This document shows, in pieces, positions 36,697 through 53,319 of a DNA stretch of 59,993 bases; the stretch's first letter is position 1; every line of letters starts with the position of its first letter. Made by a program: the position numbers and the translations under genes. Source of the stretch: Patescibacteria group bacterium (GTDB taxonomy: Bacteria; Patescibacteriota; Minisyncoccia; Phycocordibacterales; UBA2100). The notes under the pieces were generated by a model. It saw only the letters and a list, made by a program, of their open reading frames with translations. It was not told where the DNA came from and searched no databases. The stretch lies in assembly GCA_015485505.1 (NCBI GenBank), contig WFTK01000003.1, positions 1 through 59,993 of the forward strand. Reading direction: 5' to 3'.

Positions 36697-38739
36697 TTAG
36701 AAGTCTATTAAGTCTACCCGCACACCTTGCGACAAGGTGTGCGGGTCTACCTTATCACTCTCTCCTCCTGCCCCACCATCTTCGCCTGTTAGAGTGGCTC
36801 GGGCGTCCTCGAGATAGCTTGGGTCTAAGTCGTTTAAGAATTGGCTCGGCATATTAACCTGCTCTTTACCATATATGGTGCGGGTAGTGGCATGGGTTAA
36901 ATATAGCTTCTGCCCTGCTCTTGTAATAGCAACATAAAAGAGCCGTCTCTCTTCTTCTTCGTCTATATCGGCACTATCCCCCATCTTTTCATGAGGGAAG
37001 AGGCCTTCCTCAAGCCCTGTTACAAACACATAGTCAAACTCTAAACCCTTACTTGCATGTACCGTCATTAGCTTAACTGCGTTGTTATCCTCCTCTAACT
37101 CATCTTGATCTGTGGCCAGAGCCGCATCTTGCAATATATGCTCTATACCCTCTTGCGGCTCTAGGGCATCGTACTTTGTGGCTAGAGTTACAAGCTCTTT
37201 AAGGTTCTCTAAGCGCTCGCGCTCCTCCTCTGTGCCATTTTTATACTTGCTCTCCATGCCACTCGCTTTAATAATATGAGTAAAGGTTTCTGACGGCTTA
37301 CTTGAGAGGGCGACATGCTTAATCTCAGTGAGGAGGTTGTTGAACTTGCGAGCCTTCTCTTGTAGTGCTGGGCCGAGAGTGTGCTCCTCACCACTGAGCA
37401 TCTTAGTGAGTGTCATCTTACCTATACCTCTTGGTGGTGATGCTACTGCGCGCGCCATGTCTACCGTACTCTTAGGGTTAAGAGCTGCTTTTAAGTAGCT
37501 AAGTACATCCTTAACCTCTTTGCGGTCAAAGAACTTGGTCCCAAGCACCTGATAAGGTACTCCCGAGTAGAGGAATCTCTCCTCAAGTCCTCGTGATTGG
37601 AAGTTGGCGCGGTAGAGTACGGCAATATCGCGAGGCGCTACACCTCCATCATTAATCAGTCTCTCACACTCCCCTGCTATGTAGCGAGCCTCATCTCCTG
37701 CGCTATATGCACTGTATACACTGATGTTGTCACCCTCGTTATTTTGAGTAAAGAGCTTTTTGTCCTTCCTGTTAGTATTCTTCGTTATTATATCGTTGGC
37801 TGCGGCTAATATGTTCTGCGTAGAGCGATAATTTTGCTCAAGTAATATTGTCTTAACGTTGTCAAACTCCTTCTCAAAGTAATTAATATTCTCTGGTTTG
37901 GCCTGCCTCCACGTATATACACACTGGTCGCCATCACCTACAACGCAGATATTCTGCTCTTCTCCCACAAGGAGCCGCACTAAGTCGTATTGTACGGCAT
38001 TGGTGTCTTGGTACTCATCTATGTGCAGGTATTGCCACCTTTTTTGGTATTTTTTACGCACCTCCTCATGCCCTGCGAGCAGGTCGTGAGTCTTTATTAA
38101 GAGGTCATCAAAGTCTAGCGCCCCCTCCTTGTTAAGCGTCTTGTCATACTCTTGCCATACCTTACCTGCTATCTCTCCATAGTAGCTGCCCCCTGCTGCA
38201 GAGCCGGTAAACTCCTCTCTGCCCATGTTACTACCCTTACTCTTAGAGATTATTCCTAATATTGTCTTAGGTTCGTATTGTTTTGGGTCATAATCTAGCT
38301 TGACTAAAGCACTCTTAATGGCTCTGAGTGAGTCTGCTCTGTCAAAAATAGTGAAGTTACGAGGTAGGCCGAGTAGCTCGTGATTCTCTCTGAGTATGTG
38401 CACTCCAAGCGAGTGGAAGGTCGCCATAAAAGGCATACTCATACCACTACTGAGTGCATTAATAGGTCGGTTAATTTCATCATCCGAATTTAATAAATCT
38501 CGCATACGCTCGCGCATCTCTTTCGCCGCCTTATTTGTAAAAGTAACAGCGAGAATATTCTCAGGTGCTACCCCACTCTTAATAAGGTGTACTATGCGAT
38601 GTGTAATTGTCCGCGTCTTCCCTGCGCCAGCACCGGCTATTATAAGTAGTGGACCGTTGGTGTGTAACACCGCCTCGCGCTGAGGCCTATTAAGCTCTTT
38701 TAAATGAGATTGTTCGCTTTGTTGATTATTTGTTGACAT
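36697..38739 (-). CDS. uvrD: UvrD/PcrA-family superfamily 1 DNA helicase
   Basis: Motif I AGAGAGKTRTITHR, motif II HIDEYQDTN, motif III VGDGDQCVYTWRQA, motif VI VAITRAGQKL. Confidence 0.9.
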   Translation of the reverse strand: MSTNNQQSEQSHLKELNRPQREAVLHTNGPLLIIAGAGAGKTRTITHRIVHLIKSGVAPENILAVTFTNKAAKEMRERMRDLLNSDDEINRPINALSSGMSMPFMATFHSLGVHILRENHELLGLPRNFTIFDRADSLRAIKSALVKLDYDPKQYEPKTILGIISKSKGSNMGREEFTGSAAGGSYYGEIAGKVWQEYDKTLNKEGALDFDDLLIKTHDLLAGHEEVRKKYQKRWQYLHIDEYQDTNAVQYDLVRLLVGEEQNICVVGDGDQCVYTWRQAKPENINYFEKEFDNVKTILLEQNYRSTQNILAAANDIITKNTNRKDKKLFTQNNEGDNISVYSAYSAGDEARYIAGECERLINDGGVAPRDIAVLYRANFQSRGLEERFLYSGVPYQVLGTKFFDRKEVKDVLSYLKAALNPKSTVDMARAVASPPRGIGKMTLTKMLSGEEHTLGPALQEKARKFNNLLTEIKHVALSSKPSETFTHIIKASGMESKYKNGTEEERERLENLKELVTLATKYDALEPQEGIEHILQDAALATDQDELEEDNNAVKLMTVHASKGLEFDYVFVTGLEEGLFPHEKMGDSADIDEEEERRLFYVAITRAGQKLYLTHATTRTIYGKEQVNMPSQFLNDLDPSYLEDARATLTGEDGGAGGESDKVDPHTLSQGVRVDLIDF

Positions 38740-45484: not shown

Positions 45485-45979
45485 TTATGCCTTTTGCTCG
45501 GCTACTTGCCCAAGTGCTATTGCAATCCTTTGTATAGGGCTGTTAATAACATTGGCAAACATACCACGGAGCACATCTAATGGTGGTATAGTTGCTATCT
45601 CTTGCATGCCTGTTGCGTCTAGCATACCACCCTCGTACACTCCGCCTACTATAGCTAGGCGCTCGGCACCGTACTCTTTAGTAAAGCTGTATACGCCGCG
45701 TGCTGGAGCTGTGGGGTCGTCTGCACCATATGCTATGGCTACTTCTCCCTCTAACTCGGGGACATCTCCACTTATACCGGCTGCTTCAGCTGCTTTGCGC
45801 ATTAGGGTCTTCTTAGCTACAAAGTAGTTTACGTTGTCACCCTCAAGCTTGCGGCGCATTGCTGTCTCGTCTGATACACCAAGGCCTTTAAAGTGTACGA
45901 ACACTGTAGATGCTGAGTCTTTAAATATGCTTGTGAGCTTATCAAGTATCTCAGTCTTTTGTTGTCTTGTTTTTGCCAT
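45485..45979 (-). CDS. rplJ: 50S ribosomal protein L10
   Basis: MAKTRQQKTEILDKL..., the typical L10 pattern. Lies directly upstream of rplL. Confidence 0.9.
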   Translation of the reverse strand: MAKTRQQKTEILDKLTSIFKDSASTVFVHFKGLGVSDETAMRRKLEGDNVNYFVAKKTLMRKAAEAAGISGDVPELEGEVAIAYGADDPTAPARGVYSFTKEYGAERLAIVGGVYEGGMLDATGMQEIATIPPLDVLRGMFANVINSPIQRIAIALGQVAEQKA

Positions 45980-46004
45980 CTTTAATTTTTTATGAGTTGG
46001 AGTT

Positions 46005-46096
46005 AGTTTGAAGGTCTCACAAACAAATTTTAAAACCCTCTACCCCTAGCCGCCCACTGCCCCAGGTTTGAAAATTGTTTCCTCAACCTTCAAACT
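46005..46096 (-). ncRNA. Long imperfect hairpin with a conserved 25-nt loop, copy A (rplJ 5' region)
   Basis: Outer stem 46005-46015 AGTTTGAAGGT / 46086-46096 ACCTTCAAACT. Conserved core 46033-46071 is shared with 51.5 kb. Strand assignment is inferred from the flanking genes. Confidence 0.5.
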
Positions 46097-46231
46097 TAGG
46101 TACCATGGATGGCACTCACTTAATAATATTGGAGCTGCTCGACCACTCGGCACGACTGACATCTCTTTAGAGACGGCATGCTGTCTTCAGTCCAATACGG
46201 AGTATACTAACTGATTTTACTAAATAGTCAA

Positions 46232-47755
46232 TTAATATTCCTGTTTTGGGCGGTAGCTTAGGGCTTCTAGGATGTGGCTCTCTGTGATGTCCTCAGTATG
46301 CTCTATGTCGGCTATTGTGCGGGCTAGCTTGATTATCCTGTGGTAGGCGCGTGGGCTTAGGTCTAGCTTCTTAGCGCTTAAGTTAAGTACCTCTTGAGCG
46401 GGTTTTGACAGCTTTGCATGCTTGGCGATGTCTTTATTATTCATATGAGCATTTGGCTTGCCTCTTTTATTTTGTGCCACTCGCGCTTTTAGCACACTTT
46501 TTAGTGCCTCCTCACTCTGGCCTTGAGTGCCCTTTTGGTTTAGCTTCTCATGGGCTACTTGCCCCACCTCTATCCACATATCTATCCTGTCCATTATAGG
46601 GCCACTTATCTTTTGCTTATATCTACTTATCTCATGCATAGTACACTTACATTTATTACTCCCCAAGTAGCCACATGGGCACGGGTTAAGTGCTGCGATG
46701 AGTATAAACCGTGAGGGGAACTCGGCTGAGCCCTTGGCTCTACTAATAGTCACCACTCCATCTTCAAGAGGTTGGCGTAGAGCATTGATAACCTTCTTAT
46801 CAAACTCAGGGAACTCATCCATAAAGAGTACTCCGCGGTGCGCCAGTGTAACCTCGCCCGGCTTGGGGTATGAGCCCCCTCCTACCATAGATACATAACT
46901 AGCTGTGTGGTGTGGTGAGCGTATCTGCGGAGTTGTTATAAGTGGCTCAGAGAGAGTGCCAGATATAGAGTGTATGCTTGTGACCTCTAGCGCCTTATCA
47001 AAGCTCAGTGGTGGCAATATGCCTGCAAATGCTTTAGCAAGCATCGTCTTGCCTGTCCCTGGCGGGCCGTATAGTGCAATGTTGTGCCCTCCAGCAGCAG
47101 CTATGGTGAGCCCACGCTTGGCACCCTCTTGCTCAACTATGTCGTCAAAGGTTAGTTGGGGCGTGGTTTGTTGAGGTTTTATGCTTGTTGGCGGAGTTGG
47201 CTCTATAGCTTGCGACCTTATTGGTGAGTCGGCGATGTTAATGTGACGTATTACCTGCTCTAGCGACTCTGCGCCATAGACTGTGATATCGCTTACTAAA
47301 GCTGCCTCTGTAGCATTGTCACTAGGCACGAATATCTCTGTGTAGCCCGCCTCTTTAGCTGCTAGAGTGAGGGCCAGTGTGCCTGTTATGGGTCGCAATG
47401 AGCCATCTAACCCTAGCTCTCCTAAGAATATACGGTTAGCTGGCTCAAACTCTATCTCTTGTGCAGCTAGTAGATATGCCAGGGCTATTGGGAGGTCAAA
47501 TTGTGGTCCCTCCTTGCGCACACTTGCCGGGGCTAGTGAAACTACTACCTTTTTGTTGTTTTGTTTAGGTGGTTTATACCCAGTGTTTTTAATGGCGGCG
47601 CTTACTCTGCTACGTGCTTCGTCTACCGGTTTGTCTGCTAAGCCTACAACATTAAAAGAGTGCAGACCTTTAGATAAGTCTACCTCCACGTTAATAATGT
47701 ATGCATCTAATAAGTTAGTTTGAGCGCTATATACTCTAGAGAAGCTTGTTGCCAT
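46232..47755 (-). CDS. comM: ComM/YifB Mg-chelatase-like AAA+ protein
   Basis: Lon-like N-domain, Walker A GPPGTGKTMLA, Walker B VLFMDEFPEF, Cys cluster NPCPCGY...CKC. Confidence 0.9.
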   Translation of the reverse strand: MATSFSRVYSAQTNLLDAYIINVEVDLSKGLHSFNVVGLADKPVDEARSRVSAAIKNTGYKPPKQNNKKVVVSLAPASVRKEGPQFDLPIALAYLLAAQEIEFEPANRIFLGELGLDGSLRPITGTLALTLAAKEAGYTEIFVPSDNATEAALVSDITVYGAESLEQVIRHINIADSPIRSQAIEPTPPTSIKPQQTTPQLTFDDIVEQEGAKRGLTIAAAGGHNIALYGPPGTGKTMLAKAFAGILPPLSFDKALEVTSIHSISGTLSEPLITTPQIRSPHHTASYVSMVGGGSYPKPGEVTLAHRGVLFMDEFPEFDKKVINALRQPLEDGVVTISRAKGSAEFPSRFILIAALNPCPCGYLGSNKCKCTMHEISRYKQKISGPIMDRIDMWIEVGQVAHEKLNQKGTQGQSEEALKSVLKARVAQNKRGKPNAHMNNKDIAKHAKLSKPAQEVLNLSAKKLDLSPRAYHRIIKLARTIADIEHTEDITESHILEALSYRPKQEY

Positions 47756-48225: not shown

Positions 48226-49296
48226 TTAAAGTTGTTGCAAGGCTGCTTTACGTATTTTGTATCTCTGAGATACTTCTCTTAGAGTATTAATGTTGTTGGT
48301 TATCAGTATAGTGTTGTCGTCTAAGAAGGAATATAAAAAGCGTATATTACCCTCGTCATCTCTCATGACTCGTGCATTTAAGTTTTCTACTTTTATATTA
48401 CTTGGTGTCCTAGAGAGTGACCTGCTACCAGGAGAGTTGAAGAATGGACGTAATTCTCTTTCCCCAACCTTCTCCCAGTCTAGTAGTGTAGCTAGAGCAT
48501 GCTCTGAAGATGTAGTTGTTAATAATATAAAAGGTGTATTGCGGTCGGCAACATGGAAGCCTACCATATACCTATCGGCTCTACCCATAAGACGTATAAA
48601 TTGGTCGTCTAGGGAGAGCCCAAATCGTATGGGTAATTCTTGTTGAGTTAATAGCCGACCGGTGTCTTTTATAGCAAATTGAGTCACAGACCCTAGAGTG
48701 GTATTAGACTCTAGCATAGCGTCATTTAATATTGAGAGCACTTTCCTGTTTGATAGGTCGGCTATGTCAACATTTATTCTATAGTCTGTAAATATCATTG
48801 ACTTATCGGCCACCATTGGCTTATTGGTAGCATTTTGTGTTACCAATTGTCTTTGGTATGCCGAGTAGGCTATATATATTGCAGACATTCCAAGTATTAG
48901 CATTAAGATACTCGAGATTATTAAGAACATCCTTGATACGCCGCCCTTAGGCTCAGCCTCTTTTGAACTTATGGTTATGAGCTCGTCCCCATCTTTTAGT
49001 GTCTTTTTGTCACTCTGCATAGCCATGGCTCGCACCATGGAGATTTTACGGTTTTTAACTAGGCTCTGCACATCCTCTTTATAAGTGTGGAGCATGGCAG
49101 ACTTGGCACTCAAACCACGACGCGGTTTAGTGTCTTTCTCTTTGTGTTTAATATCTTCCTTATCTGTGCTTTTAGCAGATTGAGGCTGAGTTATAGAGTC
49201 TAATTCTATGTTACTAGCCATTGGGTTAAGTGCTGCTTTAGGTGTTTTATCACCTGACGGTGGCTTATTTGTGTTGGGTGTCTCCTTGTTGTCCAT
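48226..49296 (-). CDS. Single-pass membrane protein, unknown function
   Basis: Basic/polar N-part, TM FLIISSILMLILGMSAIYIAY. Overlaps the pnp 3' end by 32 nt; alternative start ATG 49221. Confidence 0.5.
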   Translation of the reverse strand: MDNKETPNTNKPPSGDKTPKAALNPMASNIELDSITQPQSAKSTDKEDIKHKEKDTKPRRGLSAKSAMLHTYKEDVQSLVKNRKISMVRAMAMQSDKKTLKDGDELITISSKEAEPKGGVSRMFLIISSILMLILGMSAIYIAYSAYQRQLVTQNATNKPMVADKSMIFTDYRINVDIADLSNRKVLSILNDAMLESNTTLGSVTQFAIKDTGRLLTQQELPIRFGLSLDDQFIRLMGRADRYMVGFHVADRNTPFILLTTTSSEHALATLLDWEKVGERELRPFFNSPGSRSLSRTPSNIKVENLNARVMRDDEGNIRFLYSFLDDNTILITNNINTLREVSQRYKIRKAALQQL

Positions 49297-51466
49297 GATT
49301 GTTACTTGATGGCTTTAGACCCTTACGCTCTGCGAACTCAGGGTCAGCATCTTTGATAGATAAATCTATCTTTTGTTTGCCACCCATCTCTTTGATTTCT
49401 TTAATTATAACATTAACCTTCTCTCCCTCAGCTAGGGCATCAGAGACATTGTTGATACGGAAGGGGGCTATCTCAGAGATATGCACCAAGCCCTCCGTAC
49501 CTGGAGCAATACGCACAAATGCGCCGAAGTCTAGGATCTTTACTACCTCTCCCTCAAACTTCTCACCCACTGCATACTCGTGTGTAAGCTCTTCTATCTT
49601 ACTTTTAGCAAGCTCAGCGCTACCATTCTTGCCAGTGATGTAAATCGTGCCATCGTCTTCTATAGTTATCTCATCTACTCCAGTCTCATCTTTAAGTCCA
49701 TTTATCGTCTCACCTCCCTTGCCTATTACTAACCCTATCTGGTCTTCTTTGATTGTCATTGAGAGTATCTGTGGCGCGCGCGGACTAATATTTGCGCGCG
49801 GCTCGGCTATGGCCTTGTGCATTACCTCGAGTATCTGCAGTCGCGCTGTCTTGGCTTGCTCTATACCCTCTTTAAGTACCTCTACTGGCACACCATCAAC
49901 TTTAACATCCATTTGTATTGCAGTGATGCCGTCTTTAGTGCCGGCAACTTTAAAGTCCATATCACCAAAGTGATCTTCAGGTCCTTGTATATCTGTAAGT
50001 ATCTTATAGCGATAGTCTTGATCTCCAGGGTTACCCATACTCATCATACCCATAGCTATGCCGGCTACCGGATTCTTAATAGGTACTCCTGCATCCATAA
50101 GTGCTAGGGTTGAGCCACATACACTGGCTTGAGAGCTAGAGCCGTTGCTTGCCATTGTCTCACTTACTATACGTATTGTGTAAGGGAATTCCTCTTTACT
50201 TGGCAATACCGGTACAAGGGCCTTCTCTGCCAAGGCGCCGTGACCTACCATGCGTCTGTTGAATCCACCTACACGCCCCGTCTCCCCAACAGAGTATGGT
50301 GGGAAGTTGTAAAAGTGCATATAACGCTTTGAGCCATCTTGTGTCTCTATAGTGTCTATGAGCTGTGCATCGTCTGGTGAGCCGAGTGTAAGAGCAGAGA
50401 ATACGTGTGTACCTCCACGGTAGAAGATACCTGTGCCATGTATCATCTCACTCACTCCCCCGGCCTGAGCATAGAGCGGGCGGAGCTCGTCCATTGCTCG
50501 GCCGTCTTGGCGTTTGTCGTTGTCTAATGCCTCTGTGTGCACTACCTCGTCCACCATCTGCTCAAAGTAGTCGTCTGCATTTTGTATCTCTCCTGCAAAC
50601 TCCTCTCTCTCTTTAACTATACTCATCCACTCGTCTTTAAGAGCGTATGCCCCTTTCTCTCCAAAGACGTACTCTGTCATCTTTGGCATTATCTCCGCCT
50701 CAAACAGGGCTTTAAGCTCATCGCTTGGCTTTGGTGTTATTATCTCTACCTTCTCTTTACCTATTTCCTCTATTATCTTGTGTTGCCACTCTTGGAGCTT
50801 ATTTGTCTCGCTAGCCGCTAGCTCTAATGCCTTGCCGATAGTCTCCTCAGTTGCTTCTTTAGCGCCAACCTCTACCATATTTATATTGCCGTCTTTACCA
50901 CAGGCTAAGAGGTCTAGCTCCTCACTCTCTGCTGTGCGTTGAGAGTAGTTGGGGTTGATTATAAAGTTTTCATCTCCATTAACCCTACCAATACGCACGG
51001 CGCTCACTGGCCCTGCCCAAGGTATGTCGCTTGTACCAAGCGCAAGGCTGGCACCTATTACCCCCAATACATCTGGGTCCTCCTCGTCTATTGCTAACAC
51101 AGTGGCTATTACTTGTATATCTCGGCGCATAGATTGGTCAAATAGTGGTCTAATGGTGCGGTCTATCACGCGCGCGCTGAGCACGGCCTCCTCGCTTGGC
51201 ATGCCCTCTTTCTTACGGAATCTGCCACCAAGGATTGCTCCTGCTGCGTAGAACTTCTCTTCAAACTCCACAGAGAGCGGGAACCAGCTTTGCCCCTCCT
51301 TCTCTCTGCCCATCACGGCCGTAACCATCACGGCGGTGTTGCCATATCGGATTATTACAGAGCCATTTGCTTGGTCTGTTAGGTTAGTAAATTGTGCGGT
51401 AAGTGTCTTACCCCCCACCTCTATGCTATACTCTTTTAGTACTATACTCTTAGGGAATGCTTCCAT
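49265..51466 (-). CDS. pnp: Polyribonucleotide nucleotidyltransferase (PNPase)
   Basis: Two RNase PH domains, KH (VIGKGGETINGL) and S1 (GAFVRIAPGTEGLVHISE). Confidence 0.95.
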   Translation of the reverse strand: MEAFPKSIVLKEYSIEVGGKTLTAQFTNLTDQANGSVIIRYGNTAVMVTAVMGREKEGQSWFPLSVEFEEKFYAAGAILGGRFRKKEGMPSEEAVLSARVIDRTIRPLFDQSMRRDIQVIATVLAIDEEDPDVLGVIGASLALGTSDIPWAGPVSAVRIGRVNGDENFIINPNYSQRTAESEELDLLACGKDGNINMVEVGAKEATEETIGKALELAASETNKLQEWQHKIIEEIGKEKVEIITPKPSDELKALFEAEIMPKMTEYVFGEKGAYALKDEWMSIVKEREEFAGEIQNADDYFEQMVDEVVHTEALDNDKRQDGRAMDELRPLYAQAGGVSEMIHGTGIFYRGGTHVFSALTLGSPDDAQLIDTIETQDGSKRYMHFYNFPPYSVGETGRVGGFNRRMVGHGALAEKALVPVLPSKEEFPYTIRIVSETMASNGSSSQASVCGSTLALMDAGVPIKNPVAGIAMGMMSMGNPGDQDYRYKILTDIQGPEDHFGDMDFKVAGTKDGITAIQMDVKVDGVPVEVLKEGIEQAKTARLQILEVMHKAIAEPRANISPRAPQILSMTIKEDQIGLVIGKGGETINGLKDETGVDEITIEDDGTIYITGKNGSAELAKSKIEELTHEYAVGEKFEGEVVKILDFGAFVRIAPGTEGLVHISEIAPFRINNVSDALAEGEKVNVIIKEIKEMGGKQKIDLSIKDADPEFAERKGLKPSSNNHGQQGDTQHK

Positions 51467-51495
51467 ATTGTTATTTTTATTATGTTCTTTAGGGA

Positions 51496-51587
51496 GGTCC
51501 GAGCTATTTCATAAACAAAACTCAAACCCTCTACCCCTAGCCGCCCACTGCCCCGGGTTTGAGTTTTATTTACTCATATCTCGGACC
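51496..51587 (-). ncRNA. Long imperfect hairpin with a conserved 25-nt loop, copy B (pnp 5' region)
   Basis: Outer stem 51496-51503 GGTCCGAG / 51580-51587 CTCGGACC. Inner 13-bp stem 51517-51529 / 51555-51567. Loop TCTACCCCTAGCCGCCCACTGCCCC. Confidence 0.5.
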
Positions 51588-51688
51588 AAGCGTACCGCAT
51601 TGATAAAGAACTTTAGAGCTTGCAGAATCCAGAACTGAACACCTAAAGGTTCAATGCTGTATCTGCAAACTCGCTTATAATAAACTTG

Positions 51689-51697
51689 AGTATACCA
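51689..51697 (-). promoter_or_regulatory. Extended -10 TGGTATACT (minus strand), candidate pnp promoter
   Basis: Reverse complement of AGTATACCA at 51689-51697. Implies a ~215-nt pnp leader. Confidence 0.4.
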
Positions 51698-51733
51698 GAG
51701 TGCCGTACTTTTACAAAAGACGCTAAATGTTTG

Positions 51734-52162
51734 TTATTTTGAAGTTGTGCTTTTTATGTACTTTTTGCTTAAGATGTAGAATACGATTACTTCAGTTATA
51801 AAGAATGCTATGTTAATAGCATTGATATTGATTACTTTAGTTTTTAGTAAATCTATTAATATAAAACTTCCGCTACCGATAATTAAAAATATTGTTGAGA
51901 GCTTCACAATCTTGTCTTTATTTTTTACTACGTATGTTTTATTGATATAACTTGCAGAGTATATAACCCCAAGCCAGACACTTATAACCCCTATTACATT
52001 TGTGAAGTATATTACGGGCCCATTACTTGCAAGAAGTTTTAATAATACAGGTAATGCAATCAAACCAATTACAAACGGTATAGCAAAACCAGCGGTAAGG
52101 TAATGAGTTAGTGCAATGTACCAGTCTTTAGATTGCTTTTTGTCTTTTGTTTTAGAATCCAT
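51734..52162 (-). CDS. Small four-TM membrane protein, unknown function
   Basis: 142 aa with four hydrophobic helices. Confidence 0.5.
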   Translation of the reverse strand: MDSKTKDKKQSKDWYIALTHYLTAGFAIPFVIGLIALPVLLKLLASNGPVIYFTNVIGVISVWLGVIYSASYINKTYVVKNKDKIVKLSTIFLIIGSGSFILIDLLKTKVININAINIAFFITEVIVFYILSKKYIKSTTSK

Positions 52163-52231
52163 ATTTTTTATAAAGTTAAGTAATTATTGAATACTAGTCT
52201 CTTTAGTATTTTTTGTCAATCTCTTTTTTAC

Positions 52232-52768
52232 CTACTTTTTACGAGAAGTCACTTTATTGCGGTGGTTGCCTATTAGATATCGTTTCTTATCTTGACCCAT
52301 GTCTATAAAGTCGTCTGCAGTTTCCTTAAGCATCCCCGAGCTACTGCGAGCAAAGCTTATGACCTCTACTTGGCACTCTTGCGCTTGTAAGTACTTAACG
52401 AGAGGTACAAAGTCGCCATCTCCAGTGGCTAGCACTACGGCATCTATCTTCTGTGCTATGGCTATGGCGTCTATTGCTAGGCCTACATCCCAGTCGGCCT
52501 TCTTAGCCCCACCGGCGAAGATCTGTATGTCTTTAGTCTTGATGTCTATACCGAGTTTCTCCAGAGCCTCAAAGAAGGGTTGCTCCTCCCCTCCCTCGGT
52601 GTTTACTACATAGGCTTTGGCTCTTATTAGTTGCCTGCCTGCTACGGCGTCTTCAAGGAGATTCTTAAAGTTAACCTTGGCTCCGTAGAGATTCTTGGCG
52701 CTGTGGTATAGGTTTTGTGTGTCTATAAACACGGCAACACGTTGCTGTGGGTGTTTTGTTACTGTCAT
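52232..52768 (-). CDS. NYN-domain (LabA/DUF88-like) putative RNase
   Basis: VAVFIDTQNLYHSAKNLYG and ATGDGDFVPLVKYLQ, the acidic residues typical of the NYN/PIN-like fold. Confidence 0.7.
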   Translation of the reverse strand: MTVTKHPQQRVAVFIDTQNLYHSAKNLYGAKVNFKNLLEDAVAGRQLIRAKAYVVNTEGGEEQPFFEALEKLGIDIKTKDIQIFAGGAKKADWDVGLAIDAIAIAQKIDAVVLATGDGDFVPLVKYLQAQECQVEVISFARSSSGMLKETADDFIDMGQDKKRYLIGNHRNKVTSRKK

Positions 52769-53287: not shown

Positions 53288-53319
53288 GCCCACACACCTT
53301 TAATCAAAGGTGTGTGGGC
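53288..53319. promoter_or_regulatory. Perfect 14-bp inverted repeat between the divergent rpsO and xerC/D promoters
   Basis: GCCCACACACCTTT-AATC-AAAGGTGTGTGGGC. No U-run on either side. Confidence 0.5.

Follow-up and report, generated by a model that had tools for sequence, protein, structure and literature searches.

The stretch of DNA analyzed here, referred to as the window, comprises 59,993 nt of a Patescibacteria group bacterium (NCBI GenBank assembly GCA_015485505.1, contig WFTK01000003.1). Its minus strand carries rplJ (45485-45979), which encodes ribosomal protein L10 (Pfam PF00466, E = 7e-22), and pnp (49265-51466), which encodes PNPase and contains two RNase_PH domains together with KH and S1 domains according to Pfam. 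Close upstream of each gene lies one copy of a palindromic element. Copy 1 occupies positions 46005-46096 and copy 2 positions 51496-51587 (97.9 and 96.8 bits, respectively, with a covariance model of the element); both are assigned to the minus strand, i.e., their G-rich strand is the mRNA-sense strand of rplJ and of pnp.

The initial annotation had described a 39-nt core that recurs with one substitution, caps a long imperfect hairpin in both places and is located just upstream of the two start codons, and these observations hold. The core of copy 1 (AAACCCTCTACCCCTAGCCGCCCACTGCCCCAGGTTTGA, 46033-46071, minus strand) consists of the stem top and a 25-nt G-rich centre, and is near-invariant in a comparison of eight copies of the element. 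It recurs at 51524-51562 (minus strand) with one mismatch, and none of 100 dinucleotide-preserving shuffles contained a match. Under each core there is an AT-rich hairpin of ~92 nt. In the rplJ copy, its 30-nt arms (46005-46034 and 46067-46096) are 77% complementary; in the pnp copy, the arms at 51512-51529 and 51555-51572 are 94% complementary and are followed by an outer stem, GGTCCGAG/CTCGGACC, at 51496-51503 and 51580-51587. An outermost extra stem (GUUCUUUA/UAAAGAAC) encloses copy 2 in the minimum-energy fold, which then covers 51484-51611 (minus strand). The palindromic region around copy 1, approximated by reading the flanks, extends over 45993-46118 with no strand assigned, and has the edges TGAGT...ACTCA. 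The hairpin foot is 25 nt from the ATG of rplJ and 29 nt from that of pnp. The pnp copy folds with -48.5 kcal/mol (z = -4.65, a value equaled in none of 200 shuffles); the rplJ copy folds more weakly (z = -2.5), its structure of lowest free energy being different from the single long hairpin.

The anatomy of the element is thus a GC-rich centre of 37 bp, composed of AAACCC, the 25-nt G-tract-rich loop and GGGTTT, on long AT-rich arms with predicted stems of 19-29 pairs. As the initial annotation proposed, it lies outside known Rfam leaders: when 45900-46300, 51440-51760 and five related loci were searched at the gathering threshold and at E<=10, only tRNAs passed and no relevant family was matched. 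No intrinsic terminator (a GC-rich stem with a U tract) serving the upstream genes was found at either copy, and this reading was dropped because the U tract is missing. Searches with blastn-short for a source, target or complementary partner of the core in tRNAs or other genes, in a database that covered part of the loci and no rRNA of this clade, returned chance 9-10-mers only. A likeness by eye of the core to the 5' half of a tRNA and to 16S helix 45 was unconvincing, and a full-text literature search with the core sequence returned no paper.

Leaders, promoters and gene starts

Upstream of copy 1, and outside it, there is a conserved structured rplJ leader (46126-46200, minus strand; AUUGGACUGAAGACAGCAUGC...GUGCCGAGUGGUCGAGCAGCUCCAAU), common to all seven species compared (see below), with compensatory changes in 10 of its 22 predicted pairs. 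It is preceded by a promoter-like site for rplJ, TTGACT-16-TAGTAT (46204-46231, minus strand), which is kept in relatives; the leader and a promoter of the TTGACT-N16-TAGTAT type are also present in the related loci L006, L008, L010, L028, L029, L030 and L039. This leader presumably mimics the part of E. coli 23S rRNA that binds L10/L11, the GTPase-associated centre, for example in UGGUCGAG and GAAG.CAGC. Likewise, a conserved leader hairpin precedes the element at pnp (51616-51672, minus strand; GAGUUUGCAGAUACAGCAUUGAAC...GUUCAGUUCUGCAUUCUGUAAGCUC; 21 predicted pairs). It is found in all seven species behind an extended -10 promoter-like site, TTGTAA-16-TATACT with TG before the -10 box (51689-51716, minus strand).

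Neither conserved leader was matched by Rfam, including its L10_leader model. The rplJ leader is likely the real L10 regulatory RNA, probably a previously undescribed variant of the L10 leader in the Candidate Phyla Radiation (CPR), and the pnp leader hairpin may serve in PNPase autoregulation or as an RNase III site. In E. coli, the RNase III hairpin of the pnp leader and the L10 leader (Rfam RF00557) are long hairpins or structured RNA in 5' UTRs. Their analogues in the window are more likely the conserved upstream leaders than the G-loop hairpin, and it is these leaders that we consider candidates for L10 and PNPase autoregulation.

The two window copies lie within predicted 5' UTRs with the G-rich strand in mRNA sense, as had been claimed, and promoter-like sites are found upstream of both. 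Since terminator features are absent and the predicted promoters are upstream, the element appears to be co-transcribed with the gene that follows. The initial annotation also noted a genome devoid of SD motifs, in agreement with our count: an SD-like tetramer (GGAG, GAGG or AGGA at -20 to -4) precedes 3 of 53 gene starts, compared with 11.6% at random positions. Among all gene starts in the window, boxes resembling TATAAT or TACAAT were seen ~5-12 nt before many ATGs. The sequence suggests that leaderless or very short-leader mRNAs may be widespread in this genome. A separate observation concerns the L7/L12 ORF (44895-45455, minus strand), which is 186 aa long, compared with 161 to 175 aa in relatives, and has its N-terminal dimerisation domain from residue 69; either the protein carries about 65 additional N-terminal residues or its start codon has been misassigned.

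Occurrence and orientation among relatives

The syntenic region rpsO-NYN-pnp-...-comM-rplJ-rplL-...-tuf-rpsJ was compared between the window and six further species (L006, L028, L008, L029, L030 and L010), whose L10 proteins are 85-78% identical to that of the window. The window's L10 protein is also encoded on the NCBI MAG GCA_027000585.1 and in ENA and Logan assemblies, and the nearest named L10 homologues belong to Candidatus Kaiserbacteria/Paceibacterota. Three genomes (that of the window, L006 and L028) have the element between leader and ATG at rplJ as well as at pnp. The other four, L008, L010, L029 and L030, have it at neither gene; there, the leaders reach almost to the start codon, and the empty sites have an AGCCAA motif in common. 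The proposal that the element is itself a conserved leader is therefore not supported: the hairpin occurs in three species and is missing in four, and the leaders lie upstream in all seven. Nor is the element conserved wherever gene and leader are, as it is missing in L039 as well as in these four, with leaders kept. A neighbor-joining tree built to polarise gain versus loss was star-like and favored neither.

Orientation also varies, and this had been named beforehand as an outcome that speaks against a regulatory leader. At pnp, the G-rich strand is in mRNA sense in all three carriers; at rplJ, this is so only in the window genome, and the mRNAs of L006 and L028 would carry the C-rich strand. 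The strand facing the adjacent mRNA is thus not constant among orthologues (one G-rich and two C-rich at rplJ, three G-rich at pnp, and C-rich at ruvA, a third locus described below). When the rplJ elements of the window and L006 are compared, the reverse complement is identical at 82/92 positions (score 72) and the forward strand at 72/111 (score 25). The inversion covers the 92-nt element (46005-46096) with its asymmetric mismatches, and the flanks are co-linear by reading. By eye, weak homology in the inverted orientation extends to the TGAGT/ACTCA repeats, which places the breakpoints outside the 92-nt element. Orientation is uniform in the consensus sequences of four independent assemblies of the window species and three of the L006 species.

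In plastid non-coding DNA, a segment within inverted repeats may flip between close relatives while the flanks are undisturbed (PMC6824564). In those cases, usually the loop alone flips and no sequence is conserved, whereas here a whole quasi-palindrome has been inverted together with its mismatches, and its centre is strongly conserved.

The slot between the NYN-domain gene and pnp (window 51734-52768, minus strand) is variable among relatives in other respects. It holds a 142-aa orphan in the window, a 353-aa orphan and a hammerhead-like RNA in L006, and a GcrA-like 68-aa gene in L010, and is empty in L008, L028, L029 and L030. The hammerhead-ribozyme-like sequence (CUGAUGAGUCC...GGACGAAA), at 4122-4189 of L006 (plus strand) between the 353-aa hypothetical gene and pnp, scored 21.4 bits with Rfam Hammerhead_1 (gathering 34; E = 0.0056).

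Copy number, conservation and other palindromes

A relaxed pattern, restricted to the stem top and G tracts, had 16 sites among 185,579 species genomes. Only two of them are real, namely, the pnp and rplJ sites of one Kaiserbacteria metagenome-assembled genome (MAG), the source of L006. The exact 21-mer had no match in the same genome collection, and the relaxed pattern had none in viral contigs. Within 244 kb (the window and related loci), nhmmer and the covariance model found no further or diverged copies. The window together with another stretch of the same scaffold (L035; about 70 kb in all) has two copies, a count that diverged copies could escape. The reading as a generic high-copy repeat, raised earlier as an alternative, thus fails, and the many dispersed copies typical of MITE, REP, Correia or ERIC families are not seen, with two pattern matches in the only carrier MAG scanned.

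In the JGI metagenome collection, a single contig (L005) contains the exact 21-mer, between the divergent genes ruvA and rpsT. L033 (GCA_054015255.1), whose RuvA is 94% identical, carries the element in the same spacer, with the changes AAACCC -> AAGCCC and CAGU -> UAGU. The ruvA/rpsT spacer is without the element in the window genome (L035) and in L037, where it is 58 nt long. In both carriers the element is C-rich in ruvA sense. As judged by aligning the sequence with the empty spacer, it would sit between the ancestral extended -10 box of ruvA (TGGTACAAT) and the ruvA ATG, upstream of the rpsT promoter; if so, the nearest 5' UTR does not have the G-rich strand as its sense strand.

Alignment of the eight copies, from at least five species, gave 38 invariant columns, mostly within the core, and five positions of the 37-nt centre are variable. 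Since neutral intergenic DNA cannot be aligned between these species, the near-invariance of these 37 nt indicates purifying selection, for which a function in the host would be an equally good reason. The arms pair inside every copy and form at least three unrelated subtypes that cross loci and species: CAATTTTCAAACC..GGGTTTGAAAATT in all rplJ copies and the L006 pnp copy, TTATAAACCC..GGGTTTAGAAATTAT in the L028 pnp copy and the ruvA copies of L005 and L033, and AAAACTCAAACCC..GGGTTTGAGTTTT in the window pnp copy. As read from the alignment, the two L006 copies, mutually inverted and 5.4 kb apart, agree over the inner ~61 nt, which indicates that units of about 60 nt or more may have moved by transposition or gene conversion. 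Compensatory changes occur in 12 of 24 arm pairs; the same covariation is expected of a DNA palindrome whose symmetry is maintained by template switching. In the arms, 16 G·U pairs form on the G-rich strand versus 3 on the C-rich strand, in a set of few, partly non-independent copies. This bias follows the loop rather than the gene (2:0 in L006 rplJ and 4:0 in L005), and suggests that the G-rich strand is the folding strand, whichever gene adjoins.

Other palindromes share these spacers. L039, from the same genome as L033, has no G-core at rplJ; an unrelated palindrome of ~110 nt (ACCCGCC...GGCGGGT) is present at the element's rplJ position in L039 (about 250-345) and L032 (1-71). The rplJ-rplL spacer of L039 (about 860-1000) contains an AT-rich palindrome of ~100 nt, which has an exact 15-mer, TTGAAAATTGTTTGT, in common with the element arms. 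A second palindrome family, (G/A)CCCGCACACCTT-N3-4-AAGGTGTGCGGG(C/T), is represented three times in about 70 kb of the window genome: at 36707-36755 and 53288-53319 of the window and at about 9915-9950 of L035. On either side of the copies, short direct repeats (CAAG; TCTAC) have the appearance of target duplications, and the L035 copy lies in the ruvA/rpsT spacer, where another lineage has the G-loop element. Because unrelated palindromes occupy the same spacers, small palindromic inserts appear to compete for few long spacers.

Origin and possible roles of the element

Our best reading is that the element is a small palindrome of about 90-125 bp limited to a narrow clade of Candidatus Kaiserbacteria (CPR). 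We give about even odds to its being a low-copy, non-coding insertion element whose G-rich strand folds and which is co-transcribed as a long hairpin. Such an element would have been acquired, or exchanged via gene conversion, at a few permissive transcribed spacers (L10 leader-rplJ ATG, pnp leader-pnp ATG and ruvA/rpsT), in either orientation relative to the gene, in host genomes that appear very compact and have mostly short leaders. The surplus of G·U/G·T pairs formed by the G-rich strand points to it as the one that would have to fold, whether as RNA or as single-stranded DNA. In that case, the invariant centre could serve the element's own need, e.g., recognition by a copying or recombining machinery, rather than act as an mRNA loop for rplJ and pnp. 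As a by-product, the host mRNA would gain a very stable long hairpin just upstream of an SD-less start, which could alter mRNA processing (e.g., by RNase III) or stability in either orientation, as with the Correia and ERIC elements.

The ERIC/IRU elements of enterobacteria are small palindromic inserts that occur in either orientation and are co-transcribed with adjacent genes as long hairpins, which RNase III may bind or cut, with effects on expression. The Correia elements of Neisseria are described (PMC2649163) as small palindromic inserts co-transcribed as long hairpins, which can be bound or cleaved by RNase III and can change expression. By analogy, the element would work most like these: all are small non-coding intergenic palindromes that are found in either orientation and are polymorphic for presence or absence. 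Correia and ERIC elements, however, are present in tens to hundreds of copies, their terminal inverted repeats are conserved and their target duplication is TA, whereas the G-loop element has about two copies per genome, no target duplication was found, and its centre is conserved and its arms variable. Classical MITEs conserve the terminal repeats and not the centre; here the reverse is seen, and neither conserved terminal inverted repeats nor target-site duplication was detected. The mobile GC clusters of yeast mitochondria and the Rickettsia palindromic elements are short GC-rich palindromic inserts in AT-rich compact genomes. In those elements the GC-rich part is the stem, whereas in the G-loop element it is the unpaired centre of an AT-rich palindrome.

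Several observations count against insertion. Reading of the borders of the eight copies revealed no target-site duplication (a possible duplication, TATGGCA, in the start region of L028 is ~6% likely by chance), all three pnp copies are G-rich in mRNA sense, and no candidate for a mobilising gene was found. Two copies per genome, at the same two loci in three species, make inheritance or selection more likely than active transposition. We also considered whether inverted duplication of target sequence produced the arms, since the empty L008 site (AAACAATATTTGA) is similar to the arm AAACAATTTTCAA; the likeness, in AT-rich sequence, speaks neither for nor against this origin.

It seems unlikely, though a serious contender, that the element is instead a cis-regulatory mRNA hairpin which co-regulates rplJ and pnp as an RNA G-quadruplex, a pseudo-SD or standby site, or the site of a trans-factor. 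In both window copies and all three pnp copies, which lie in predicted 5' UTRs at a distance of 25-42 nt from SD-less starts, the mRNA-sense strand is the G-rich one, and the invariant core, the arm covariation and the G·U bias toward the G strand all fit this idea. The mRNA-sense loop, GGGG-CAGU-GGG-CGGCUA-GGGG-UAGA-GGG, satisfies the G3+N1-7 rule (four G3+ runs, 1-7 nt apart), as the initial annotation stated, and in this it resembles a canonical 5'-UTR G-quadruplex (GGGG-N4-GGG-N6-GGGG-N4-GGG); the fourth GGG is the stem top. The motif is kept in seven of eight copies. The changes GGGG -> GGGA and CAGU -> UAGU, found in copies in which the G strand has the sense of the gene or of rpsT, keep four G3 tracts, and the sole tract-breaking change (GGG -> GGA in the fourth tract of the L028 rplJ copy) sits in a copy that is C-rich in mRNA sense. 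However, ~64% of random substitutions would spare the G3 tracts, so this sparing is not significant.

A G-quadruplex switch, as initially suggested, is not what folding predicts. When ViennaRNA was run with quadruplexes permitted, the hairpin was still predicted for every full element, and only the isolated 28-mer formed a quadruplex in the model (-5.2 kcal/mol). Unlike in a canonical G-quadruplex, the fourth tract is paired in the stem top, the motif is antisense at several loci, and the inter-tract loops are as invariant as the G tracts, which a bare quadruplex does not need. The element is, moreover, inverted in two of three rplJ orthologues and missing in four of seven relatives that keep the true leaders, and the L005/L033 copy, C-rich in ruvA sense, lies upstream of the rpsT promoter. 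A rare insert that is found downstream of conserved leaders and in either orientation is unlikely to be a shared mRNA regulatory loop. For rplJ, the idea of a shared regulatory RNA is accordingly weakened, a trans-factor acting on the mRNA loop being unlikely in most carriers; for pnp it is less so, and a quadruplex or RNA role is still conceivable for those copies in which the mRNA carries the G-rich strand.

A bolder proposal, which we hold to be speculative and rather improbable, is a previously undescribed self-folding CPR element. Its G-rich strand, as single-stranded DNA or RNA, would form a hairpin with a hyper-conserved, quadruplex-capable 25-nt loop read by a factor of its own, which may be an RNA-binding regulator or else a strand-specific recombinase or nuclease that acts on hairpins and would move or convert the element, and this portable module would have been recruited repeatedly to the rplJ, pnp and ruvA/rpsT leaders in SD-less genomes.

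We think it quite improbable that the element is an orientation-independent DNA control site, in which the duplex, or an extruded cruciform or G-quadruplex core, serves as operator or roadblock for rplJ, pnp and ruvA. Such a site would accommodate a variable orientation at a constant position (promoter-proximal and upstream of the ATG) at three loci and a core conserved in both orientations; the core also holds a direct repeat, GGGGYAG-N10-GGGRTAG, which is perfect in L033, and the AT-rich arms would be expected to favor cruciform extrusion. On the other hand, an operator needs neither arms of 25-45 bp at every copy nor a wobble strand bias, its regulon would be merely two sites per genome, sister species do without it, and no candidate regulator was found. 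A programmed inverton-like switch, alternating a G-rich and a C-rich loop in rplJ mRNA, is very hard to credit. In its favor, species differ by an inversion of the whole element that leaves the flanks co-linear, TGAGT/ACTCA stand at the palindrome edges, and the pnp copy is 1.7 kb away from a gene for a tyrosine recombinase. Against it, orientation is uniform in the four window-species and three L006-species assemblies, the recombinase is kept in species without the element and is thus probably a housekeeping XerC/D, and inversions at hairpins can also be passive events, as they are in plastid DNA (PMC6824564).

If the element is indeed a low-copy palindromic insertion, it calls for caution: look-alike hairpins before classically autoregulated genes would reflect a shared insertion and not a shared regulator. 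The real conserved leaders of rplJ and pnp would lie just upstream, unannotated in Rfam for this phylum. The invariant G-tract centre, free arms and strand-biased fold of the element would represent an unusual anatomy, and the dynamics of palindromic inserts, i.e., their gain, inversion and arm exchange, would be documented in ultra-small CPR genomes, where little of this kind has been described.
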